Made by a program: the position numbers and the translations under genes. The notes beneath the pieces were generated by a model. That model was not told the DNA's origin. It ran no database searches and saw only the letters and a list, made by a program, of their open reading frames with translations. This document shows positions 219 through 64,000 of a DNA stretch of 64,000 nucleotides, piece after piece. Source of the DNA: Glaucostegus cemiculus (taxonomy: Eukaryota); the NCBI GenBank assembly GCA_976551045.1, contig CDPCPM010000037.1:17360001-17424000 (forward strand). Direction: 5' to 3'. Position 1 is the stretch's first letter. Each line of letters begins with the position of its first letter.

Positions 219-301
219 GGCCCTTGCTCTCCGTGTTCACAGCGGACCTTGATTTAATGTCCATACAATTAAGGCACGCGGTGAATGCCAAGAGAGGGGC
301 C
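219..301 (+). ncRNA. MIR124: pre-miR-124 hairpin (likely mir-124-3 orthologue); 5p arm 232-253, mature 3p arm 270-291
   Basis: Seen: exact miR-124-3p TAAGGCACGCGGTGAATGCCAA (270-291) and 5p CGTGTTCACAGCGGACCTTGAT (232-253). Lower stem GGCCCTTGCTCTC pairs with GAGAGGGGCC; basal UG at -14 (218-219); CNNC motif CTTC at 308-311. Paralogue number inferred from the neighbouring YTHDF1. Confidence 0.99.
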
Positions 302-5000: not shown

Positions 5001-7635
5001 ATGGATCATGTCACTGATAAACTTTGAGAAACTTTAAATATAAAAAATGAAATTCAGGCTTAACTTGCCGATTTAAAAATACCCTTCCCTACCACCGCCC
5101 CCCCCGCCCCCCCAAAAAATAAAACATTCTTTACTACTGATACTCAAACACTTCAAGGCAGCAGATCGCAAAGCCTTGGGAGATGTGGTGCGACTTGCTC
5201 CTGTTTCAGGTAGTTCAAGGTGTTTTGGAAAGCATTGACATTGGATGATGGTTATCGAGTGGTGACTTTCAAAATGGACTGCGACCAGGAATAGGCTGGG
5301 AGCTCGAACAATGCTCCCTGCCTTCCGAATTGCCGCCTGTAAAGTCTCAGTACTGCATGTTTTAGAGGGCACAGCTTGCTTTAAACTAACAATTTTTAAT
5401 AATTCTCTGCATTTTTCTTTCGCTCGATTTATTTATTTAAAATATAGAAGTTTCTTAAGTGCGTGCACAGGTTCGAGATTTCATAGGATCATCCGGAGAA
5501 TGATTGAGGAAGTTGATGGCTGTGCAGGGGTGCTGCGGTGAAATATTCTTGATACTTGTGTAGCCTCGTTCAGATTACCTTCAGGCGGAGTTACTCACAA
5601 AGGGACATATTTTGTTTTCCGATTTTTACATAGAATTGCCTGTAATATCGTTCAAAACCTAGTACCGTCAGCATCAATTTATCAACTATCAAATGGCACT
5701 GTGACATTCTCCTGCTTGGATCTAATAACTTAGTGGCTGGTTAAAAAAATAACTATTAGATGGAATCACTTTTTAAATCCATAGGTTATAAACAAAATGT
5801 ACGTTTCCGAACGCGGACATATCGCTCGTCATTACCACAGCTCCCATCCAATTGCCTTATAACATTTGTGCGCCTGCATCAATCTATATGAACGTACTTC
5901 AAAAGATCGGGGGTGTTGCAGTTCATATCATAACCAAAGACCTTCCGCTGGGTTATCGCAATATCTGACCATAAATCGGCTTTGGTTTGCTCTACGTTTA
6001 AACTCAGCACGTCGGGTCACGCTGTGAAATCGGACAAGGGACGCAATAAGATTTTTGCCTATTTTTTTTATTAAAATGTGCCTTTTCTCCATTTTAAGGC
6101 TATCAAACCTTAAAGAGTCGTGCTGTTAAATCCTCTGATTGATCAATCCGTACCATGTGACTGCACACAGCGGATTGACACAAATGTCGGATTTCTACAT
6201 CCTTCCTGCTGTTTACTGTTGCAACAGCTTTATTGCTTTCCGCCCTGTTTTAGTCATAAAAGCCTGGATTATCTGTTAACTTGCTTCCATTCGCCATTCA
6301 GGTAAATTGAATATTTTATGCTTCCATTTACTACTCGGGTTTCTCTATTTTCACAAATCTGCCTGTTAATGATGGCTTATTTTATCAATCCAATCAAAGT
6401 TTAACATGCAATAAAGCCTCCTGAATACTTCTCAAAGCAGTAGATGTATATCCCAGTTCTGTAGACAGATAACTAATATATTGTTATTTTATACAGAAAC
6501 CATTTTCTAATGTGGGTCTCTCTGTTCTGGGGCAGTAGGTGCATTTGGACAAGTTGTGGTGTTAAAACAGTTGGGGTGATGGGGGCGGAACAAAGTGGAT
6601 TTGCTTGGTGCCAACGCTGCAGCAGCCGCCCTAGATTCGTGTGGTTTACTTAGTAGCTTCCTAGATCATTTCAATCTGCAGGATACTCATCCCACATTGT
6701 TCAGGTGTCTAGAGAGGGTGATCAACCATTCCCATTCTTTACAATTTTATGGACATTACAAAATGGAAATGCATCATTTAGTGGAACTAGTCCATGTTGG
6801 CATTTACCTGACAGCAAAACTTTTCCATGTTACATATGTGTCCATATTTCTTTGCTATGTTTGGTTTAACCTACCTACTCACTTCTAGACATTAAAATAG
6901 CCTTTCCAATCACAGATCCAATATTTTCTTATGTAAAAAGAAATTTATTTTTCCTTTCTAAACAAAATATCTTGCAGTTAATCATGAATATGTGACCCTT
7001 CAACCTGCACTGAATTACCAAAAAACAGTATGGCTTGCATTAATATTGTGCCTTTAATGAAGAAACCCAGCTTGTATATTTTATTGGCTATGATCTGACT
7101 GTCCCTATCCTAGCCCATGCCTTCCTTAAGCTACTTCGTAACACAATGAAAACTGCTACAATTCAAGTGTTTAGTCATAATATCTTCTAATGTGCAAAAT
7201 CTTAAAATCTACACTCAATCTGACACTGGAATCCCTTGCACTGTACAAGACTGCACAGTATTCTATTTTTGTTAGAAAATCAAAATCAAACCTCAGACCA
7301 CTATTTCACCAAACTTTAAAATTTTACACCTTCAGCCACAACTCCCATTATTTCGTTAGCTTTATATTTATTGCCTCATCTATTTGATGAACAGGTTTTT
7401 AAAAGCAACTTGTGAGTGTAAACCTTCAAATTGCACCATTCTTGTTGTCACCCAAATTTCGCATTCAAAATACTACATTTTTTGCACCAAAAGATACCAC
7501 TTCACAGCTGCTGATATTGAACTCTACTTTTTAATCTAGAGAAACAAAGGACTGCAGGTGCTGGAATCTAGGTGAAAAACACTATGATGCTGGAGGAACT
7601 CAACAGACCAGGCAGCATCTATGGAGAAAAGCAGG

Positions 7636-7673
7636 CAGTCAATGTTTCGGGTCAGGACCCTTCTTCAGGACTG
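7636..7673 (-). ncRNA. Minimal type I hammerhead ribozyme motif (PLE-associated)
   Basis: Minus strand reads CAGUC-CUGAAGA-A-GGGUCCUGACCC-GAAAC-AUU-GACUG: stem I CAGUC/GACUG, CUGANGA and GAAA cores, stem II. Confidence 0.7.
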
Positions 7674-7880
7674 AAGGTAGGAAAAGGGGAAGCCCAATAT
7701 ACAGGAGAGAAAAGCAGAGCAGTGGATTCCCCCAGTGGATCTGTTCTCCTCTCCTCCCCCACACCTGCCTATCACTCTCTCTTACCTGCATCTACTTATC
7801 ACCACCCTGTGCCCACCCACCCCACCTATCGCTGCTCTGCTTTTCCCTCCTATATATTGGGCTTCCCCTTTTCCTATCTT

Positions 7881-7918
7881 CAGTCCTGAAGAAGGGTCCT
7901 GACCTGAAATGTTGACTG
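7881..7918 (+). ncRNA. Minimal type I hammerhead ribozyme motif (PLE-associated, CpG-decayed)
   Basis: CAGUC-CUGAAGA-A-GGGUCCUGACCU-GAAAU-GUU-GACUG. Confidence 0.65.
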
Positions 7919-9289
7919 CCTGCTTTTCTACTTTTTATCTATTCCACAATATAATCATCTTGCACTTGTAGATTCATTTGGCCCTTGAAACTATTATTAT
8001 ACATTCTATTTTAGTATCATTTGCTAATTAGGAACTGCTCCTTTTACCCCATACCCCCTAAAGGCAGGCACCAGTACTTACTTCCATAAAGTCAACAAAC
8101 TTTTCTTTCCTCCTCCTAGCCCTTACTAACCTCACCCCCTCCATTTTATTTATATATAACCAACTCAAAAACTTAACCAATTTTCTCTTGTTCGGTGCGT
8201 CATTCAAAATGTTTCTGGAAGTTCGTGAGCACAACATAGACCTGAAGTTCATCCATCTGTTCCCTGACTACAGAACTCTTTCAAGCTTGGCAAGCGTGAT
8301 TTTCATTATTGAATGATGTTTCTTCATTCTATAACATCTGCATCTGTTTGTAGAACTGTTGATAGATACTGAATTTAATTCCCCTTATACTACACATTGG
8401 TAAGTCTGGGGATAGGATAATATACTGGGGACAGTATAATTTGTACATGACAAATTGTATCATCCTATGATTGATAAGTGCATAAATTGATTTATCTCCA
8501 TAAGACTAAGAGTATTTATACATGGCTAAGCAACAGTGCACATACAGCCTATTGAAGATTAATTGATCTTGGATATATTGATTAAAGGCTATTTGCCACT
8601 GCAGAATTCTGTACAAAACCAATAGGAAATAATTAACTTTTCTGCTCCCCTTAAATCTTTGTATAAAGTTTGATTCCCAATATGAAGTCTTAAAATATGT
8701 GTGTGGAAAGGCAGTTAAGTGAAGTTTTAAAATGCAATTTACTTAGTTTTAAATGAGATCTTTTAGCAATATCTTAGAATGTAGATGCATTTCCATTTAG
8801 GCTACAATAATTGGCCTGAGGGTTCTTATTGGCAATATTGGCAGATGAATGGAACATTTTCTCAACTGAAATGTGGATAAAGGAAATAAATAAATAACTA
8901 TAATGCACCCACTTTCTAACATCAGTCTTGGTCAAACTACAGATATGGTCTCAAAGTAGTGTGGATTAAAGTCTTTAGTGAAGAATGCAGGCAGGAAAAC
9001 TTGTACAGATTGACTGACTGCATAGCTTTGAAGTAGTTTGAAGTTATACTGCATTGTGTGTGGAATCCCCGCTGAATGAGACCAGCTCCTGAATAGAATC
9101 TCTCATATCTTAGTTTAGTACATTTGGAAGGCAGAGCAATGACCAGATTCTGGACTTGTATTAAAACTTTCACATTACCAGTTCTGTCTCAGTACACCCG
9201 CATTATTGCACAGCAAAATTGTTACATAGAAAGGGACTATATTGAATTGCATAATTTTTTGGTAGTTATGGATTCTGGCAGGATATAAT

Positions 9290-14094: not shown

Positions 14095-14430
14095 AAGAGA
14101 CACAAGAGACTGCAGATGCTGGAGTCTGGAGCAACAAACAACCTGCCAGAGGAACTTAGCAGGTTGAGCAGCATCTGTGGGAGAAAAGGAATGCTCAATG
14201 TTTTGAGTCAAAACCCTGTACCAGGCCTGAAAGTGGAGAGGGGAGATGGCCAGTATAAAGAGGAGAGGAGCGGTGGACAGGAGTCCGAGGTGATTGGTGA
14301 ATGATGACAGGCAGGTTGCGGCAGGTAGGGGAGGGGTGAAGTTGGGAGACAATGGCAGGTGAACGATAGATGGAGGCAGACAGTGGGGGAAGAAATGAGA
14401 GGCAGATGGAACAAGATGGGGGCAGGGAGG
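14095..14430 (-). mobile_element. Penelope-like terminal repeat fragment with degenerate hammerhead
   Basis: ACACAAGAGACTGCAGATGCTGGAGTCTGGAGC...GCAGCATCTGTGG followed by a purine-rich tract, homologous to the 7539 and 62620 copies. Confidence 0.75.
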
Positions 14431-15639
14431 TTTCAATCCATACAGTTTAATCACTATCTGGAAAGGAGACAAAGCAAACTAGATAAAACAACCTTATTAA
14501 GAAACCTTTTCCTTTATTGAGACCTCCAACCTCAAGAAAACTGAGCAATTCAATATATTTACATTAAGCATTAAATTTGTTTATCATTAAGCTGTCATTT
14601 CCAAAGAAGTCCATGCAGTACATATGAAGTTAGAGACTATTAGTGTTTACATGTGTACATTATCTTGCCTTCCAGTGGCTTCATACTGCCATGATGTCTT
14701 TTTAAGACATTGGTATTTCATTTCCAGAAATGATTCAGAGAACCATTCCATCAAAGTAGTCTGAAGTTCTTCCCGGATAACAAGATGTCCCTGGTTCCAG
14801 AAAGCAGTCATGATCAAACTAACAATGTCAAATCACAGTCTGAAGATTGGTACTTGTAACCAATACAGAGTCATTACTGCATCGAACGTTTTCCTCCACA
14901 CAGCTCAATTCAAAGTTCCTTCTAGAAATTTGCATTCATTAATAAACATCAAAAAAACTAGAAATGAATATTTGTAAATGAATACAAGGTTAAGCAAATC
15001 ATTGATAATAACTTTCCAAGCTGGAGCAGCCAAATTAATTCCTCCATCAACCTTCTAAATATCCCAAACATAATGCAACATTTATAAAATAATAATAATT
15101 GCACAATTAATATAAATATTGACTAGAAAAATTACTCGTGAACACATGAATTAGAAACAGGGGCCTCGAGCCTGTTACCCCATTTAGTAAGATCATGGCT
15201 GATCTGATTGTAATCTCAAGTCTGCATTACTATCTATCTGTGATAACCTTTCAATCCTTTACTTATCAAGAATGTGTCCAAATAAAATATCGAAAGGCTG
15301 TACTTCTACCACACTTTAAAGGAAGAAAGTTCCAAACACTCATGACTCCTCAAGAAAAAAAAACAATGCAGGGTTTCTACCCAAAACGTCAAAGATTCTT
15401 CTCCCCCAAAAGGTGCTGCTTGACCTGTTGAGTTCATCCCGCTAATTGTTTATTGCTGAAAATTCCAGCATTGGCACTCTTGTGTCTCTGCATTCCCTTA
15501 CTTCTATCTTAAATGGGTAACCCTTCACTATTAAACAGTCAAAGCTTAAAATTAATGAAACAAATGTTGCCTTCCTAACTCTCTTCTGCTCAGAGCAGCA
15601 AATGGTGAGAATGTCAGGTACAAAGACTAATGATAAGCC

Positions 15640-20520: not shown

Positions 20521-21321
20521 AGGGACAGAATTCCACATTTAGAAAAGCATTTCAAAAACCTGAGCTAAAATGTTAATTTTCAGAGCAAGACAGCATTAAG
20601 TTGCTGGACGTTACACAATCCTGTTCTCCCTAGTTCGCAAGCAGTCATAATTTAAGCAAGGATTGTTTGATTTCACAGTTCCTGGTATTTCACAATTTTG
20701 GTACCACAGGCGTTAGTACAGATATGATCAATCAAAAGCAAACTTGGCTTATTATATCTGTACTAACACCTGTGGGAGCAAACCGAACAGTGGTATCCAA
20801 CATTGCCACTGGGAGACTAACTCAGCACAGAACTAGAACTGATTGCAGTTCTGACAACCTCTAAGGAACTTCATTTCACAATCAGCGGTGTAGTTATGGC
20901 TCAGCAACTCACCACATCAGAACATTGACCCAGCTGAAGGAAAAGACTTGAAGGATGAAATTAGTTATTTTGCATTTATAATGAGGAAAATACCTAATAG
21001 CATTGTAATTAAAACCATGATGGCTCACCTCAAATCGTAAAGGCCACTGTGAACAATGACCATGGATTTGGAAGAAATTATTCATGTTGAAAATACTCGA
21101 GAAAATAATTAAATCAGTGTACAAAATATTAGAAAGCTGTAATTTACTCAGAGTATTAGAATGCAATAGTTCTACATATATGTGGGCAAAATTGCTTTCA
21201 GTGAAGAAAAATTCATGAACTGTTGTTTCACTATCACACCATTTGCTCTGCCATCCAAGGCAAATTGATACCTTAAGGTTTTTAAAAAAGTGACCAGAGG
21301 AATAAATACAAATGAAAATCA

Positions 21322-21490
21322 AGAAAACTGCAGAAGTCTGAAATAAAAAGAGATTTTGTGGAAAGGGAAAGAGTTAAATTTTCAGGTGAAAGACTTTACA
21401 AGTGATAAAGGGTCTTCAACCTGAAATGCTAACTCTGCTTCTCTTTACATAAATGCTGTCTGACCTGCTAAATGTTTCTAACATTTTCTG
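21322..21490. mobile_element. Older inverted pair of Penelope-like termini
   Basis: AGAGTTAAATTTTCAGGTGAAAGAC is followed by its approximate reverse complement GGGTCTTCAACCTGAAATGCTAACTCT. Confidence 0.55.
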
Positions 21491-21577
21491 AATGAAGCAA
21501 ATAAAACAAGAAAAGCTAAGATCTGAGATTATTTTTTCCTGCCCCCACCTTCAACTATTGAATCAGATTTTCAAGGG

Positions 21578-22100
21578 AGTTCGGCATCACGGCTTGGTTT
21601 GGCAACTTCTCTGCCCAGGACCACAAGAAACTGCAGAGAGTTGTGGACGCAACCCAGTGCATCACGGACACCAGCCTCCCCTCCTTGGACTCTTGTCTTT
21701 ACCTCTCGTTGTCTTAGTGAAGCAGCCAGCATAATCAAAGACCCCACCCACCCAGGTTATTCTCTCTCCTCTCCTCTTCCATCGGGTAGAAGATACAGGA
21801 GCCTGAGGGCATGTACCACCAGAATTAAGGACAGCTTCTACCCCACCGTGATAAGACTATTGAATGGTTTCCTTATACAATGAGATGGATTATGACCTCA
21901 TGATCTGCCTTGTAACCTTGCACCTTATTGCACTGCACTTTCTCTGTAGCTGTGACACTGTACTGTTATTGTTACCTGTACTATATCAATGCACTCTGTA
22001 CTAACTCAATGTAACTGCACTTTGTAATGAATTGACCTGTATGCAAGGCAAGTTTTTCACTGTACCTCAGTACATGTGACAATAATAAACCATAACCAAT
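21578..22100 (+). mobile_element. Rex1/Babar-like LINE 3' fragment
   Basis: ORF 21599-21883 SIIKDPTHPGYSLSSPLPSGRRYRSLRACTTRIKDSFYPTVIRLLN is a typical Rex/Babar C-terminus; tail GACAATAATAAACCATAACC. Confidence 0.85.
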
Positions 22101-26040: not shown

Positions 26041-27351
26041 AGAAAATAAATTTTAGTTACACAAGTCCATATAAGGAAGATATGCCAATGTCACAACAGA
26101 TTTAACCACACGTTATGATACAAGTCCATATCATGAGTGTATGTTATACAATTGCAAGTATCAGAACTAGTACACATTCAACATTACAAACTGCACAAAT
26201 ATATGTTAATGTTACATTCCATATATGGTGCTTTGGAAGTAATCAAACAGGAAAGAGAAAAGTCAATGATGACATCAAGTTTTCCTTCAATTATAACCTA
26301 TTTAGTCCCAAGTCTTTATCTCTATCAATACCAAGACAGATGTAGAGAGAAGTCAGAAATTTAGTATTTTGCACCTACGTTAAACTTGTCTTTTCTGGTT
26401 ACAGCACCCCTGATGTTTTGCAATTTCAACTGCTCCAAGCCCAAGTAATTTCAGATTGGGACAATATTGGTGTTGCATTAGGTTCACAGATAATTGACCC
26501 TAGTCACTTAAAGTGTCCTCAAAGAAAATAGAAATATTGATCTGATTCAATACTTTTGCATCAATTTTTGTACAATGATGTAAGCTGAAACAGATTAATT
26601 TAATGCTACATTTAATTTCAGCAAGGCATGCTGCCCAGAAATATTGATTGTAATGGAGTTTTGCAATAGTGTACACCCTTTCACTTCCCAAATATAATCA
26701 CTTTCCACAGCAGACCACCCTGGTCACTTCTCTCAGATTAAATCATGGTTAAGTTTTCAGATAAGAACCTTTGTTCACTTGGAACAGAATTAGGTCAGCT
26801 CAATCATTTTTGCTTGTACTCCTCAAAAGGGAAGAGAAGTTACCAACGAGTCTGATTAAAAAGCTAATATCCTGCATTCTTTTGAAAAGCAGTTGATATC
26901 ATTACATAGATAGGCACCCACTACCAGCACAATCATTCAAGCCGTGATAAACTCTACAATAGATTTCACCTCCAATATAGTTAGTCAGAGCAGTTAACTA
27001 TTGAACTTACTCATGGATACTCAGTTAACTGCCCAACAATGGACTTAACACTATAAACTAGGTGCCAGAGGGCATTAAAATAATACAATCACAATTTAAG
27101 ATTTGAGTGTGGTTTAAGGAGAACGGGAAAGTGCACAGATTGCAGCTAATATCGCAGAGGCAGAGAGATAGTCAATGTTTCAGGTTGAGATTCTACATTA
27201 ATCCTCCACAGATGCTGTCTGACCTGCCGAGTTTCTCCAACGGTTTGTCTGCTCGCTCAGCGATCACAGCATTTGCTGTCTTGTGTCTCCTTTTGTCTAA
27301 TATCGTCTTTGGAAAGACTTGGTGATGAAAATAGGTGTCGGAATTGCATCA

Positions 27352-32635: not shown

Positions 32636-32770
32636 GAGTTCTGATGCAGGGTTGTGAACACAAACAGCGAGAGTCCTGATGCAGGGTCTTGGCCTGAAAT
32701 GTCAACAATTCTTTTCCTCCAAGACTTTGCTCAACCTGCCGAGTTCCTTCAGAAGATTGTTTGCTGCTCT
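32636..32770 (+). mobile_element. Penelope-like terminus with tandem degenerate hammerhead motifs
   Basis: GAGTT-CTGATGC-AGGG (32636) and GAGTC-CTGATGC-AGGGTCTTGGCCT-GAAATGTC (32671-32703); core A9 is changed to C. Confidence 0.65.
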
Positions 32771-43989: not shown

Positions 43990-44340
43990 TACAGCAGTTA
44001 AATGGAAACACAAGGAATTCTGTATATGCTGGAATCTGGAACAATACACAAAAAGTGCTGGAGGAACACAGCAGGTCAGGCAGCATCTATGGCGGGAAAT
44101 ATACAGTCAACATTTTAAGAGACTCCTCATCAGCACAGGAAAGGAAGCGGGCAGAAGCCAGAATAAGAAGGTGGGGGAGGGGAGGAGCACACACAGGCAG
44201 GTGATAAACAAGTCCAGGTGAGAGGGGTGGGGGAGGAAAGGTTGGTGGATGGTTGGGGGAAGAAAGTAGTAATAAGCTGAGAAATGATAGGTAGAAGGCC
44301 TGAAAGAGGAGGAATCCAGTAGGAAAGGGCAGTGGTCCAC
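43990..44340 (-). mobile_element. Penelope-like terminal repeat fragment
   Basis: Clearly homologous to 62620-62970 (GCTGGAATCTGG..., GGGCAGAAGCC.GAATAAGAAGGTG); hammerhead stem II partly deleted. Confidence 0.8.
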
Positions 44341-47300: not shown

Positions 47301-47912
47301 TTGCCAGTTTAAGTAGAACTATCTGAACACATTAAGAAGTTCTTTTAATGTCATTAGCTTTTGAAGGTCAGTTTCAAACTGTGTACAATCATTCCCTACA
47401 AACCTAAATAAAATTTGTATCCAGTGTGAAGAGTGTACTAAGGACATGCAAAGCACAACATTCATATAGTTATAATTATTTTGCATATAATGACAACTAT
47501 TCATTTGAAACAATCAGCATTTTATCTTCTAACTAACGAACAATCCACCTTAGATGATCACATTCTCCACTCTGGACTCTAAATCACAATAAACAAAAGC
47601 TGGGGTGAGGGAGGAATGGGCTTGTAGGGGGATAGTGTTTCCTGCCAATTTCTGCAGGACAGCAAAAGATATGACTTGAAACCTTGATGGGTTACCGAAT
47701 TATCATCTTGAACAAATTCTGAATGACAACACTGGCGAGGGGGTCCCAATTGTAATTGCATTCCAACTTTATTGGTAAATAATTATGTATTTTTTTCCTT
47801 CTGCAGCTACAATAACTTAGTCAAGTGTATACAATAAGCTCAAATATTCCAACATGAGAGCAAGTTGATTGCATTTGAATCATAAGCGCATAAATACCCC
47901 AACAGGACTCAC

Positions 47913-49439
47913 CTTACGTACAACTTCCTCCTCTTCCTGGCGCTTTTCGTAATGTGAAAAGTCATCAAAAATTGAGGTGGTATGCTTGTAAGTAGCAATA
48001 ATTTTGAGCACTTGCTTGGCTTTTTCTAAAGGAACCTCCTGTGTGTCTCGAGAGTTAGTGACTGGTTTATTATCATTGTTTTCCAAACGGATATGCCTCA
48101 GCTGGTTATTAGGCACGTCTTTTACAAAGATCCACTTAACATCAAATTTGCCTTTCCACTTGTCCTGTGACCAAACCCCAGCACATGTACCATAGTCCAC
48201 TGCCGATTTCATTTCTGCCACTCCACAAAAATGTCCACTGCCATTTACACTGAATAGTAAGTAAACAGGACCTTTGCCAGCCATCGAGCGATACGCACTG
48301 TCCAAGCGTTTATTGCCATGTTCTGTACTGCACCAAATGGAGTACTTGATAGAGCGATGGATGTCATCCTCAGAGTAGCTCTTGATAATAAACACTCGAC
48401 CATTTTTGACATTCCAGTCAAAGTCTTTTGGATTGTAGCTGTAAGCAGCCTTCAGTTTTTCAAGGACAGGATGAGTCTCATTGCTTGGTGGAGAGCTAAC
48501 TGGTACATTACCCAGAGAGTTGTTTTCATTACCAGCTCCATTGTTTTGACCAAATGCTGCACCTCTGTTGCGAGGGGCAATCCAACGATTCTGCGGGGGT
48601 TGCTGAGGATTCTGAAATGGTTGCTGTGGAATCTGCAACTGCTGAGGTGGAGGGGGCTGAGTCAACTGCTGCTGAGGAACTGCCTGAGTAGTAGGGACCT
48701 GATGAGGTGGAGGAGCTTTTGGTACAGGTCCTTTATTGTCCCATGTACCAATATCCATATTGTGTTTTATAGGAGGTGGGGGCAACGTAGAACTTCCCAC
48801 TGCCGCTCCAGTCTTTGGTTTTAGTTTTGGTTGAGGCTTGGCTGGTTTACTTGCAATGGCAGCCCATGATGTTGGCTTTGGAGCAGATACACCTGCTGTT
48901 GAGCCATTTCCAGATGCTGCATTGGTCATACCTGGGCTATTTACCACAGACCCCACTGTCTTCACACCTGATGATGTCACAGCGCCACCAATCTTTAATC
49001 CAACCATCCCTTGTTCAATGCTATTCATGCCTGGAGCTTTATTCAAAGTATCATTCGGAAACCCTGTCTGGCCATCGACTATTGTACCACCCAAAGAACT
49101 AGGTGGGTAGCTATAGCTACTGCCATATGCTGAGCTTGGTGTTTGTTGTCCCTGAGACCCACCTGTCCCCCATGCAGAAAACCCAGGGTTTTCAGGAAAA
49201 AAGTTGAACCTATGTTGATTTAAATATGGAGTGCTCCCTAGACCCCCAGGTTGACCAAAGACAGCATCATGCATGAAATGATGGTCTCCATTGCTCAGCT
49301 GTCCATAGGTTGTTAAGTATGGAATAGGAGGATCGCCACCAGTGGACCATGGTGCTGCTTCACTAAGAGAATAGGAAAATCCAATGGGAGGATAATAACT
49401 TGACAGATATGGATCAGTCATTGACGGATAGCTGTTATT
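47913..49439 (-). CDS. YTHDF1: YTHDF1 coding exon 4 (1527 nt): P/Q/G-rich low-complexity region plus entire YTH domain
   Basis: ORF 47880-49421 contains [39 protein letters not shown] and [10 protein letters not shown] (the three aromatic-cage Trp). Acceptor CAG|AAT at 49439, donor AAG|GTGAGT at 47912. Confidence 0.99.
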
Positions 49440-50200
49440 CTGTTGATTAAAAAAAGGGCAAAAGGTTAAAGAACCATGTTACAATCATTTACACTCATCT
49501 ATTCTTCCATTCTAACATAATCCAAAATTAATCCAACTGATTAATTTGAAGACCTTCAAGATTGTGATTAGTTGCAGAATTCTGATTTTATTAAGCAGTC
49601 AAATAATTAAAAATACTATTTAAAGATACAATTAAACTTCTGAATCTCTACCAGACCCATCACTTGAGTACTGCAGAAATAAACTGACTTAGTACTAAAA
49701 TTATACAGGATCAACTAATATAATGTGTATTTGAACAGTAAATCTGTCACTACACTTGACTTATTAAAGTGAAAGAACTATAATAAAAAAAATAACATAC
49801 ATCTAGTTAAGTAATTTGTTAATGTTGTCCAAGTAGTATAGCATTTTCAGAAACAGTCAATTTTGTTTGCCATATTCTGACCTTAAATACCTCAGAAAAT
49901 TAATACGTGCTGGAAGAAGCGGGTACATATATATCAAAGAGCAATAAAAGTGTGAGTGACAGAGTTGATAGCCTTTCACTCAGTTTCAAATGCAGCCATG
50001 GGAAAACTTCAATAATCCACAATCTGACTGTTCGGCATCTGGTTCTCTGGGTGATGTTTTCCAAGCCCTCTTTAAACTTCCCTGGTTCATTGAAAAATAT
50101 TAAACTATTGTGTAACATCTAAGAAACAAATGAATTAAAATGTACAGGGGTAGTAATAGAAATAGCATCCAAAAAAAACTACCAGTTCAGCACCTCTGTC

Positions 50201-57159: not shown

Positions 57160-59215
57160 CGACAGGATGTCGCGCTCTTCTTCTGCCGCCTTTACCTCCG
57201 TGCCTGTTCCTTGGGCAAAGGGACCTCAATCCCTGCTCTCTGACATCTCCAGCACCCCCCTAACACTTGGACACCCTCTTACGCTCTCCTGACCTTTTCA
57301 TTTTCAATTGCTGACGCGTTATTGACCGCCTTGACTTCTCCACTCCCCTCACTCATTCCAACCTTACCCCTCTGAACTCTCATTTTGCACCAATCTCAAC
57401 CTTATCATCAAGCCTGCAGATAAGGGTGATGGTGTTGTGATTTGACACCCAGACTTCTACCTCGCAGAGGCCAAACAGCAGCTCTTGGACACTTCCTCGT
57501 ACCTTTCCTTGGACCAGGACCCAACTAAAACACTAGGCCACTGTCTCCCAGACCATTACTGATCTTACTGCATCAGGTAATCGCCACTTCACAGCCTCCA
57601 ACTTGATAGTGCCCAATGCCACACTGCCTGCTTCTATCTCCTACCTAAAATCCACAAACAGGACTTTACCGGTAGATCTATTGTTTCTGCCTGCTCTTGC
57701 CCTACCAAACTTGTCTCTTCAAACCCTGACTCTGCCCTATCTCCCCATATCCATCCATTCCCACCTACATCCCAGACTCTTCTCACATCCTCCACTATTT
57801 TGACAACTTCTAATTCCCTGGTTCCCAGTGCCTCATTTTTACCATGCACGCCCAGTCTCTGTACATATTCATCCCTCATCAAGAAGGTCTTGGGGCCCTC
57901 CACTTTCTGGAACAAAGACCCAAACAGTTCCTCTCCACCAACAGTCTCATCTGCCTTGCAGAACAACTTCTTACCCAGAACAACTTCTCCCTCGATCCCT
58001 CCCACTTTCTACCAATCAAAGGCATAGCCGCAGGGCACTTGCATGGGCTCCATCCAAGCCTGTCTTTTTGTTGGCTATGTGGAACAGTCCTGTGCTGGCA
58101 CCCCTCCCCAACTCTTTCTCCACTACGTTGATGACTGCATTGATTCTGCTTCCTACACTCATGCAGAACTCATCGATTTGATCACCTTTGCCACCATCTT
58201 CCACCCTGGACTATTTCTGACACTTCTCTTTTTCTGGATCTCTCTGTCTCCATCTCAAGAGACAAATTATCCACCAATACCTACTCTAAATCTACAGACT
58301 CCCAGAGCTACATCACCTCCCACCCTGTCACCTGCAAGGACGCTATCCCTTTCAGTTTCTCCATCTCCATCGCATCTACTCTCAAGATGAGGTTCTTTTC
58401 TCCACCCCCAACCCCCCTTTCCTGCTTTCTGCAGGGATCACTCTCTCTGTTACTCTCTGGTCCGCACATCGCTTTCTACCCCTTCACTCCCTGTCCCCTG
58501 GTACTTTTTCCTGCAACTGTAGGAAGTGCAATACTTGTCCTTACACCTCCTCCCTCACCACCATCCAAGAATCTAAACAGCCCTTCCACATGATGCAGTG
58601 ATTCATGTGCACTTCCTCTAACCTGGTCTATTGCATTTAGTGCTCATGATATGACCTCTTCTACATTGGTGAGACCAAGTGGAAACCAAGCAACCATTTT
58701 GCAGAGGATCCACATCTTGTCCGCAATGGCCATCCTGAGTTTCTGGTTGCATGTCATTTCCATTCCCACAATGACCTGTCTGTCCTTGGCTTTCTCCACT
58801 GCCGTGGTGAGATCAAACACAAACTAGAATAGCATCTTGTATTCCTCTTGGGTAGCCAATGGCCCAATGACAGGAACATCAAATTTTCCAGTTTCAGGAA
58901 ACCCACTCCCTGTGTTACTTTTCCTCTCCCACCAGTCCACCCAGTTTCTATCTCCATTAACTCACTTTAATGTTCCTCCTGCCATTGTTACCTAGATTCA
59001 TGACCCTCCCCCACCTGGTTCCATCTGCCCATCACCCACATACCTATCTAAGTGGGTTTCTTTTCCCTTAGTTCCCTTTTTCCATCCCCTCCCCATCTGG
59101 TTCCATCTGCCCATTATCCCTCCCTTATCTGGTTCCACCTATCACGTACCAGACCTTGTCACTGCCTTTACCCCTCCCCTCCCATGCCTGGCTTCACCTG
59201 ACTATATTTTTCTTC
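57160..59215 (+). mobile_element. Penelope-like retroelement pseudogene (RT plus GIY-YIG endonuclease)
   Basis: KPADKG at 57410-57427, YVDD at 58124-58135, NLVYCI*CS*YDLFYIGET at 58620-58676; many stops and frameshifts; pyrimidine-rich 3' region with TGGTTCCATCTGCCCA repeats. Confidence 0.92.
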
Positions 59216-59739: not shown

Positions 59740-61066
59740 TTTGGAGAGGATTCTTAGGGACAGGATTTACGAGCATTTGGAGAAGCATAGTCTTATTAGG
59801 GATAGTCAGCATGGCTTTGTGAGAGGCACATCATGCCTCACGAGCCTAACTGAGTTTTTCAAAGAGGTGACCAAACAAAGGTAGAGTGGTGGATGTGGTG
59901 TAGATGGACTTTAGTAAGGCGTTTGACAAGGTTCTCCATGATAGGCGCATCCAGAAAGTCATGAGACATGGGATCCATGGAGACTTGGCTGCGTGGATTG
60001 AGAATTAGCTTGCCCACAGAAAGCAGAGGTTGGTAGTAGATAGAGAGTATTCTGCCTGGAGGTCATTCACTAGTGGTGTTCTGCAGGACCCCTGCTCTTT
60101 GTGATTTTTATAAATTATTTGGATGAAGAAGTGGAGCGATGGGTTGGTAAGTTTGCAGATAACACGAAGGTTGGAGTGTTGTGGATAGTGTAGAAGGTTG
60201 TCGTAGGTTACAACAAGATATAGACAGGATGCAGAGTTGAGTGGAGAAGTGGCAGATGGAGTTCAATCCGAACAAGTGTATAGCGATACACTGTAGAAGA
60301 TCAAACTTGAAGGTGGAGTACAAGGTTAAAGGCAGGAGTCTTAGCAGTATGGAGGAACTGAGGAATCTTGGGGTCCAAGTCCATAGTTCCCTTGAAGTTG
60401 CTGTGCAAGTTGATAGGGTGGTTAGGAGGGCATATGATGTTCTGGTCTTCATTGGTCAGGGGATTCAGTTCAAGAGCCACAAAGTAATGTTGCAGCTCTG
60501 TAAAGCTCTGGTTAGACCATACTGAAAGTATAGTGTTCAGTTCTGGTTGCCTGATTATAGGAAGGATGTGAAAGGTTTAGAGAGGGTGCAGAGGAGATTT
60601 ACCAGGATGCTGCCTGGATTAGAGAACATGTCTTATAAGGAAACGTTGAGCAAGCTAGGGCTTTTCTCTTTGGACTGATGGGGGATGAGAGGCGACTTGA
60701 TAGAGTTGTATAAGAATATGAGAGGCACAGATAAAGTGGACAGCCAACACCTTTTCCCCAGGGTGGCAATGGCCAATACCAGAGGACATCAGTTTGTCAG
60801 AGGAGGAAAGTTTCAGTGGGATGTCAGAGGTAGGATTTTTACACAGAGAGTGGTGGGTGCCTGGAACGCACTGCAGGGGGTGATGGTTGAGACTAATACA
60901 ATAGGGACATTTGAAAGACTCTTAGATAGGCACATGGATGTAAGAGAAACAGAGGGTTATGGGCTGTGTACGAGGGAACTTTTAGATTGATCTTAGACTC
61001 ATTCGGCACAACATTGGGCCGAAGGGCCTGTACTGAGCTATATTGTTCTATGTCATATGTTCTATG
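59740..61066 (+). mobile_element. 5'-truncated CR1 LINE (RT plus 3' tail)
   Basis: DFSKAFDKV, KFADNTK (60149-60169), EKWQMEFNPNKC and RGDLIELYK; tail GGGCCGAAGGGCCTGT...TTCTATG repeats. Confidence 0.95.
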
Positions 61067-61754
61067 AAAGATAGACGCCACAGTTTACATGGCAAAAGAA
61101 TATGCTCCCACTCTAATTTCCTCCCCATCGTAGGCCACCTTGCACCCACAAGTACACTTAATCCACATCCTTATGTTCTAACCCCAGATAACGCTATTGG
61201 CCTCTTAATTTCAGCCTTAGGTGAATTGCTGCCAAGGAGTCAAAGCAAGAGGATTTAACTTCACAAGAAAGAAGTGTGTAACACAGACCTTAAGTTGGCT
61301 CTGGCACCCTGCACCTGCTGCTGCTTTAGGCCTCTCATTTTGAGAGTCTTGATCTATGGAGTTCCTTCTCTAAATCTTCCATGCTCTTAGATGTTATTCA
61401 TTAATTTCCTCCTTTGGAAAAACACGGGAGAATGGTTATATGATTTAGTATAATAATGTAAGAAAAAGGAGCCAGTTATTCCTTCATATCTGCGCCACTC
61501 ATTAAGATTATAGATGATCTTCTACATCAAAGTCATGCTTCTACAGTATCCCCATACCTGTTTAAATATTGGGGCATGTATTTTTCTCTGTTTTGAATGA
61601 ACTTAAGGACTGAGCTTCTACAGAGCTGGCAGTGACCGGTAACTCAGTGACAACAAATATATTGTTTCCCTCAGCAGAGATATGAACTTATCAAAAGAAC
61701 CAATATTCCATTTTGCCAATGATCAGCCTGATCTATATCTCAACCACAAGAGCC

Positions 61755-62619: not shown

Positions 62620-63108
62620 GAGACACAAGAAATTCTGCAGCTGCTGGAATCTGGAGCAATACATAAGAAGTGCTGGAGGAAAATCAACAGGTCAGATAGC
62701 ATCCGTGGAGGGAAATAAACAGTCAATGTTTCGGGCCAAGACCCTTCATCAGGACTGGAAAGGAAGAGGGCAGAAGCCTGAATAAGAAGGTGAGAGGAGG
62801 AGCACACACAGGCAGTTGATAGGTGAGTTCAGGTGAGAGGCGAATCCAAGTGAGAGGGTTAAGTTAGGTGGGCGGGGGAGGGGGAAAGATGTAATAAGCT
62901 GATAGGTGATAGGTAGAAGAGGCAAGGGGCTGAAGAAGAAGGAATCCGGTAGGAGAGGGCAGTGGACCATGGGAATAAAGGATAGGGGAGGAGAGGAGAT
63001 GGGCATCAAGGCAGGGAAAGGGAGCCACAGGAATTCAGCTAAGACAAAGGAGTGGGGGGAAGAAAAAGAAGCGGTAAGATTACTGGAAGTTAGAAAAGTC
63101 GATGTTGG
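62620..63108 (-). mobile_element. Penelope-like element 3' end (ORF C-terminus NIDFSNFQ*, 3' region, terminus)
   Basis: Minus strand AACATCGACTTTTCTAACTTCCAGTAA matches the ORF end of the 57160 element (NIKFSSFR at ~58875), linking this terminal repeat family to the PLE. Confidence 0.85.
62720..62757 (-). ncRNA. Minimal type I hammerhead ribozyme motif (best-preserved core)
   Basis: CAGUC-CUGAUGA-A-GGGUCUUGGCCC-GAAAC-AUU-GACUG. Confidence 0.75.
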
Positions 63109-64000
63109 AGACTCCCAACGTGGAATATGGAAGCCTTTTCTCTGTTCTACAGGAAATCTCTTGTGATGAAGCTCAGAGATAAGTACTTGCTTCTGATGTT
63201 AAGTACTTGCTTCAGAGGTTTGATGTCAGGCATGTGAATGATGTGACCTAAAGCTAGAGATATATGATCAGAGCATGCCAGCGATGGTGGGCTGGGAAAG
63301 AAAGTTGACATTGTTTAATTATATAACCTGAAAATGGAAGTATAGATGCAGCATGCACCAATGTCCATTCATGCCACCTCACTTATGGGAATGCTAGATT
63401 CTTGGTGTCCTTTTTAGTTGAGCCCACTGAAGACCCACCTCATCCAGTAGGGCTGCTGTTCATTGTCTCCAAAATTTGAGACAAAATGAACATGACATTG
63501 GAATGAGCTGTTAACAATAAATTGCCTAGCCTGGCAAAGTGAAAGAATTTACTGTGTTCAAGAGTCTTCACCAGCCTCAATTTCAAGGGAAATATTCATA
63601 AGAATGCCTCAGATAGCAAACAGAATTGTATATTTGTTAATTATTTTAATTGTTTGAGTAATTCCTATCCCTCCATTAGTTGCCTTTCCATTCATTAATT
63701 AGTAAATGAGCATTTTGTCAGAACTGGCTCTATTTTGAAACAAATGAAATGATACAAATTTGGCCCATTTTGCATTTTTGGGCATTCCAAAAGAGTGAAT
63801 AGCTAATTAACCATCTTTGAAGTGCCAGTGCTGAAAGGAAAAACAGAATTGCATGCATAATTGGCCAGATAAAATGATTTTCATGATGTTGATTGAGGGA
63901 TCAAATTGCCCTGGGGATTCCCTTATCCTTCTTCAAAAAAGATCATGATTTTGTTTTACATTCACCTGCTAGGGCAAAGGGATCAGCTACCAATGTCTGA

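Follow-up and report, generated by a model that had tools for sequence, protein, structure and literature searches.

The hammerhead-like motifs in a 64,000-nucleotide stretch of Glaucostegus cemiculus DNA (hereafter the window) are, with a probability that we put at roughly 0.85, decayed minimal type I hammerhead ribozymes lying in the pseudo-LTR (pLTR) ends of Neptune-like Penelope retrotransposons. In active master elements they likely cut the element's own RNA as dimers, and their CpGs have been lost evenly and neutrally since insertion. The assignment of the motifs to minimal hammerheads of a Penelope-like element had been proposed in an initial annotation of this DNA and is supported by the present analysis.

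The three best copies in the window, at 62720, 7636 and 7881 (Table 1), read as had been described: a CAGUC/GACUG stem I, CUGANGA, an extra A, a GGGU stem II, GAAA and a stem III without a loop. Under type I hammerhead numbering, all of these elements are present in the 62720 copy, with CUGAUGA as its core, a stem II of 4 bp and U17. The core residues C3 U4 G5 A6 N7 G8 A9 ... G12 A13 A14 A15.1 U16.1 H17 are present in all three copies and in the majority state of lineages A and B, defined below, and the motif has both the extra nucleotide that sits after position 9 and before 10.1 and the G10.1-C11.1 pair. The palindrome 15.2-16.2 without loop III is found as the ancestral form ACGU and has decayed in each of the three. 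The full core and ACGU occur together in none of the window copies; the sole ACGU copy in the window (ACGTC at 15386-15390) is without C3-G5 and has A at G12. Profile searching gave 16 matches in the window, whereas none of 10 shuffles yielded any. A loose descriptor gave 20 matches in the 64-kb window against 16.7 expected, which is not above chance, and hammerhead families were absent at E<=5 from an Rfam scan of the window. The weaker copies reported near 14195, 15365, 21405 and 44105 also exist, the second of them 5'-truncated and with G12 lost. The copy that had been given as 32671-32703(+) is present, but it extends to 32708, has C at position 9 and has a broken stem I. The copies at 7636 and 7881 form a single head-to-head insertion and lie on opposite strands, so that no cis dimer is possible and any transcript has only one of them in sense; their GACUG may be a CpG decay product of GACCG. 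No same-strand intact partner for a hammerhead was found within the window.

Table 1. Hammerhead copies and Penelope-like remnants in the window (positions are those of the window)
Feature	Position	Strand	Remarks
Minimal type I hammerhead, lineage A	62720..62757	-	core complete, stem III decayed to ACAT
5'-truncated Penelope-like 3' end	62625..63129	-	last ORF codons (stop 63082-63080), pyrimidine-rich spacer, hammerhead, tail
Intron-like stretch, putative	62755..63083	-	GT at ORF stop, pyrimidine tract, CAG = stem I 5' strand
Minimal hammerhead, lineage B	7636..7673	-	N7=A, loop CCUG, U17; stem III ACAT
Minimal hammerhead, lineage B	7881..7918	+	stem III ATGT, G10.1-U11.1 wobble
Head-to-head insertion with both lineage B copies	7540..7929	.	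arms 94% alike over 98 nt; 11-nt TSD-like repeat at 7523 and 7927
Lineage C hammerhead (CUGAUG-C-A-G)	32671..32708	+	ATGT stem III, stem I broken; partial duplicate 32637-32659
Degenerate lineage C hammerhead	14192..14229	-	broken core
5'-truncated lineage C copy	15366..15395	+	ACGU kept; G12 and G1.1 -> A
Degenerate 5'-truncated copy, probably lineage D	21403..21435	+	
Head-to-head remnant	27155..27286	.	partial hammerhead on -, tail on +
Lineage A copy	44104..44138	-	stem II deletion, G12 lost; inside element 44005-44339
RT + GIY-YIG-type relic, frameshifted, Neptune-like	57250..58900	+	CX2CxxC linker; no Pfam match; separate insertion

Several other features were seen in the window. A mir-124 precursor at 225-296 (+) scored 85.9 bits, above the Rfam gathering score, and a large exon of a YTHDF-like YTH-domain protein lies at 47880-49478 (-) (PF04146, E 8e-50); the GC-rich stretch near 56.6-57.2 kb may be the promoter of this gene. 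In mammals, YTHDF1 is presumably a neighbour of mir-124-3. An imperfect inverted repeat of ~90 nt at 20697-20784 is unrelated to the hammerhead family, and other repeat fragments common to several loci, LINE-like by eye, were seen at 21527-22100 and 60108-61100.

When the genome (2.85 Gb) was searched with a strict pattern in which the CpG sites were left free, 5326 places matched, and the reversed control gave none. A further sample, the flank-selected copies, comprised the first 100 of 6972 copies found via the 3' flank alone, which avoids selection on the motif. By tblastn, 7 of the first 30 loci checked had the end of an RT/endonuclease ORF upstream on the same strand; this upholds the tie between this terminus and an RT/GIY-YIG ORF that had been drawn from the window; the link was found in lineage A and in some loci of lineages B, C and D. 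The hammerheads sit on the sense strand of the ORF, ~330 nt past its stop, and the 62720 copy holds its own last ORF codons. The layout is that of an EN+ Penelope-like element, in which an RT followed by a C-terminal GIY-YIG lies upstream of the pLTR and shares its strand; the GIY-YIG assignment comes from a weak Pfam match in locus L031 (E 3e-4, just below the cut-off), and the RT, for which the Pfam search gave no match, was identified by eye from motifs including DKG. The relic at 57250-58900, beside which no hammerhead was found, has a CX2CxxC linker between RT and endonuclease, and a CX2-5CxxC linker there is a feature of the Neptune clade (PMC8557442). Other traits of EN+ Penelope elements were also seen, namely 5' truncation, an optional tail of 30-40 bp and an adjoining inverted copy, the last in 34 of the 100 flank-selected copies. 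Most copies are stubs without the ORF. An intact ORF flanked by two same-strand hammerhead-bearing pLTRs was found in none of 20 stretches, which were chosen after 150 of 2484 RT candidates had been scored.

Some loci had a distinct organization. Arrays at L252-L257 (G000:C591:470001-530000), C98 and C110 consist of ~8-kb units in which short tandem repeats accompany a broken Penelope-like ORF and two degenerate hammerhead ends. These arrays are dead copies amplified as a satellite or segmental repeat; the C591 array was considered as a candidate intact element, and its long frames proved to be tandem-repeat read-throughs of broken copies. At L031, L032 and L035, Penelope-like ends lie inside long tandem repeats with an inverted pLTR upstream, and L130 has lost the part of the hammerhead that lies between A6 and the stem I 3' strand but has intact flanks.

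The copies fall into at least four lineages, and the four described here are split by the flank alone (64 of 73 copies assigned). Lineage A has U7, C17 and four CpGs, located in loop II, at C11.1-G12, in stem III and, across the scissile bond, at C17-G1.1. Its subfamily A' shows a G-A mismatch at 2.2-1.2 in 14/14 copies. The A' loci (L003, L004, L014, L015, L018, L019, L021, L023, L025-L028) also show less CpG decay, CAG-G before the core and no upstream ORF match; A' is possibly a younger non-autonomous family. Lineage B is marked by A7, U17 and the loop CCUG, and its 3' strand was likely GACCG ancestrally. The lineage C core is CUGAUG-C-A-G: among 15 flank-assigned copies, position 9 is C in 13 and never A. 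The strict pattern of this lineage matched the genome 4387 times. Lineage D (1471 pattern matches) has U17 and U11.1, the latter giving a G-U wobble at 10.1-11.1. It pairs U2.1-A1.1 where the others pair C-G (27/30 loci; p=1e-4 in an unbiased sample); the lineage D loci were chosen on a canonical core. Stem III holds the sole core CpG left in lineage D (CA 10, TG 10, CG 5), position 11.1-12 being TG in 22 and CA in 0 of 27, and it is the only CpG kept by all four lineages.

The stem I common to the lineages is of 3 bp only, and distal stem I is unpaired in B and C. Stem covariation across subfamilies, on which the initial annotation had staked its reading, was seen as one compensatory pair in stem I (2.1-1.1), but none was seen in stem II. 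A changed G10.2 was considered as a subfamily marker and rejected; among 100 listed of 272 its partner C, judged by eye, is nearly always kept, which indicates decay and not subfamilies. The differences between lineages are mostly at tolerated positions (N7, loop II, H17 and wobbles) together with the compensatory pair by the cut site, and G12 and ACGU are unchanged. Because drift at tolerated positions is found with a compensatory pair and a fixed G12 and ACGU, the sequence comparison suggests selection on master elements, which would be the sound part of the dimer-helix idea considered below.

The ends of the insertions were mapped relative to the motif in the 100 flank-selected copies. In 29 of them the 5' end lies in a 16-nt interval around the stem I 5' strand, ~6 times the upstream per-base rate. 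A 5'-end pile-up at the cleavage site was considered as a sign of in vivo cleavage and set aside, the 8/100 copies within -9..-5 being a weak signal near the anchor of the search. On the 3' side there are two clusters of ends ~30 nt apart, at +50-64 (35 copies) and at +85 or more (53 copies). In all four lineages a pyrimidine tract and CAG run into the stem I 5' strand; no lineage has lost this CAG, which precedes the core, whereas its 3' partners differ. A branch-point-like word occurs in 12/27 lineage D copies; shuffles gave 5.8, with a maximum of 12 in 500. The 5' site also fits the initiator motif consensus. A candidate for a spliced junction of ORF end and hammerhead in the genome, 1 match with 1 mismatch, proved to be an ordinary lineage C flank. 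Among the 15 joints listed of 221 (RNA and DNA runs), 11 are inversions starting at the stem I 5' edge and none is a splice joint. RNA reads from the same or a related organism cover the motif on both strands; in three such raw runs, of each of which 18-24% was read, there was no pile-up of molecule starts or ends, and fragmented libraries would miss such ends.

Judged from sequence, the stem I 5' strand may be a splice acceptor or a transcription start. We regard as possible, though rather doubtful, a wider proposal in which lineage C is a natural variant that works as a hammerhead but escapes CUGANGA descriptors, and the stem I 5' strand also serves as a splice acceptor or transcription start, thereby setting the RNA 5' end and gating the ribozyme. 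Insertions would then begin at the stem I 5' strand more than at the cut site because the acceptor or start sits there. If true, lineage C would show that the bulged nucleotide of a PLE hammerhead can sit between G8 and A9. No report of a C9 hammerhead form was found in the literature, where the figures and supplements of PMC4209133 and PMC3088659 may show one.

The initial annotation held that deamination falls exactly on the dimerisation helix. In lineage A all four CpGs have decayed: among the 5326 copies loop II is intact in 2280 (43%), C11.1-G12 in 1846 (35%), stem III in 2013 (38%) and C17-G1.1 in 2580 (48%), the last count being biased upward by a base pattern that restricted that site. 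The stem III CpG is slightly better kept than the CpG with G12, which is the general base of the hammerhead (PMC6155905). The corresponding fractions in the flank-selected copies are 31/83, 24/83, 33/88 and 36/89, with no difference between stem III and the other three (p=0.80), and two far-upstream ORF-end CpGs are intact in 4/15 and 5/20 copies of this sample. In the 48 copies reaching past the motif, non-CpG changes affect 32/466 cells of the core (6.9%) and 206/2373 of the upstream flank (8.7%; p=0.23). The core changing like its flank is neutral decay. In an unbiased sample of 914 kb of contiguous DNA we found 154 matches, including 71 near-full motifs of which 1 was intact; stem III had decayed in 66 copies, and 47 of these had a further break in the core. 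The ACGU ancestor that had been reconstructed for stem III agrees with the copies still intact there, and the decayed forms in the sampled copies are mainly ACAT and ATGT. From this transition pattern and a window CpG ratio of 0.26 we infer methylation; a search of the literature on CpG, deamination and methylation yielded just one general review.

It appears very improbable that the host, through CpG methylation, has a separate way of switching the ribozyme off that works specifically by deamination in the dimerisation helix. Forced 4-bp duplex energies of -1.7 kcal/mol for ACGU/ACGU, +2.6 for AUGU/AUGU and +5.2 for ACAU/ACAU indicate that both decayed forms would weaken the predicted homodimer helix, but ACAU and AUGU are mutually complementary (-0.3 kcal/mol). 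Stem III is the one CpG ancestral in every lineage; loss at C11.1-G12, however, is equal or greater in the 5326 copies, and stem III does not stand out in the flank-selected ones. The unbiased and older 914-kb sample, with stem III intact in 8/120 and C11.1-G12 in 16/113 (p=0.083), leans to the targeting view and is not significant, and 2798 genome copies still hold the core, ACGU and inner stems. Most copies, moreover, are ORF-less stubs. The 'permanent inactivation' by methylation that had been proposed is true per copy only, and hammerhead core mutants left in vitro insertion unblocked in the Anolis Poseidon element PAc (Frangieh et al. 2024, PMC11167929). As CpG loss is equal or greater at C11.1-G12, and in view of the 2798 copies with core and ACGU, deamination harms individual copies at several of their sites rather than targeting the dimer helix; CpG decay is the ordinary fate of a repeat.

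It is also unlikely that the motif lacks ribozyme function, be it in all lineages or in some, and has been kept as a promoter, splice-acceptor or protein-binding signal. Such a signal would fit the retained CAG with its varying 3' partners and the excess of 5' ends at the 5' edge (29/100) over those near the cut site, but the compensatory pair of lineage D lies next to the cleavage site. The C9 core, with its thousands of matches, and the G-A mismatch of A' also speak for it, as do the Naiad elements, which thrive without canonical hammerheads (PMC8557442); the lineages nevertheless differ mostly at positions that a hammerhead tolerates, and the related anole motif cleaves, with rescue by C3G/G8C (PMC11167929). 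The RNA reads over the motif on both strands and the 2798 intact-looking copies might point instead to individual copies domesticated to cut host transcripts. We consider this highly improbable, given a core that decays like its flank, 0 intact copies in the window and 1/71 in the 914 kb, and a window without a same-strand intact partner.

If the motifs are decayed pLTR hammerheads, as we prefer to read them, two sense hammerheads on one tandem transcript of an active master would, by analogy with published elements, share a 4-bp ACGU helix and cut after C/U17 (H17). Cleavage would be weak and probably helped by the element's protein. Under selection on masters, ACGU and G12 would have been retained and tolerated positions would have drifted. 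Most insertions would be short stubs copied from uncleaved RNA, with the 5' end likely at the hammerhead 5' edge, and these could not move again whatever the state of the ribozyme; host methylation would likely erode them as any repeat. Some observations speak against this reading: in structure predictions the core of a lone monomer pairs with stem III to give an inactive rod, and a dimer folds as a plain duplex instead of a double hammerhead; the A' mismatch, the C9 of lineage C and the lack of stem II covariation point the same way. The four lineages show which positions drifted, covaried or stayed fixed, and that a lineage with a non-consensus core still reached thousands of copies; a series of this kind could bear on whether Penelope elements need hammerhead cleavage at all.

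The extra A had been likened to that of the CChMVd viroid hammerhead, a monomer-competent ribozyme that De la Pena and Flores reportedly described in 2001. As in CChMVd, one extra nucleotide lies between the CUGANGA box and stem II, but this is a published general trait of such motifs and not merely a viroid parallel, and the parallel itself was already drawn in PMC4209133. Cervera and de la Pena (2014, PMC4209133) had already described minimal hammerheads in metazoan PLEs, where they lie in the pLTRs, and fish Xena, Poseidon and Neptune are among the carriers; no paper on Penelope/Neptune hammerheads in sharks was found. The traits given in 2014 are an extra nucleotide between 9 and 10.1, G10.1-C11.1, a palindromic 15.2-16.2, a loopless stem III and a short stem I, in mostly solo copies with opposite-strand pairs 100-700 bp apart, and dimer cleavage was proposed, with low activity (PMC4209133). 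The motifs here share the loopless palindromic stem III, extra nucleotide, G10.1-C11.1, short stem I, mostly solo occurrence and opposite-strand pairs. They differ in a stem II of 4 bp versus 7-8 bp in Schistosoma, in the CUGAUG-C-A-G of lineage C and in the U11.1 of lineage D. The strict patterns here gave 5326, 4387 and 1471 matches, and the parts of PMC4209133 compared contain no CpG analysis.

The PAc hammerhead, which cleaves only with the element's protein (PMC11167929), is likewise a pLTR hammerhead with two 3'-end clusters ~30 nt apart and few ends at the cleavage site. PAc belongs to the Penelope/Poseidon clade and its ORF starts in the hammerhead, whereas the elements here have a Neptune-type linker and none was found intact. 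In Drosophila virilis Penelope the intron 3' end lies at hammerhead helix I (PMC4209133), which resembles the pyrimidine tract and CAG entering the stem I 5' strand here, a likeness seen at the sequence level; in D. virilis, helix III is small and palindromic and helix II carries a bulge, which sets that motif apart. Vertebrate genomes, that of one chondrichthyan among them, contain non-LTR retrozymes whose type I hammerheads derive from PLEs (bioRxiv 10.64898/2026.07.22.740005). Retrozymes are tandem repeats in which each unit has a complete hammerhead, whereas the copies here are dispersed stubs or inverted pairs, and the sole tandem pair in the window (32637/32671) is degenerate. The motif, the extra nucleotide and the palindrome are thus already published, and what these copies add is a natural mutagenesis series and the C9 lineage.
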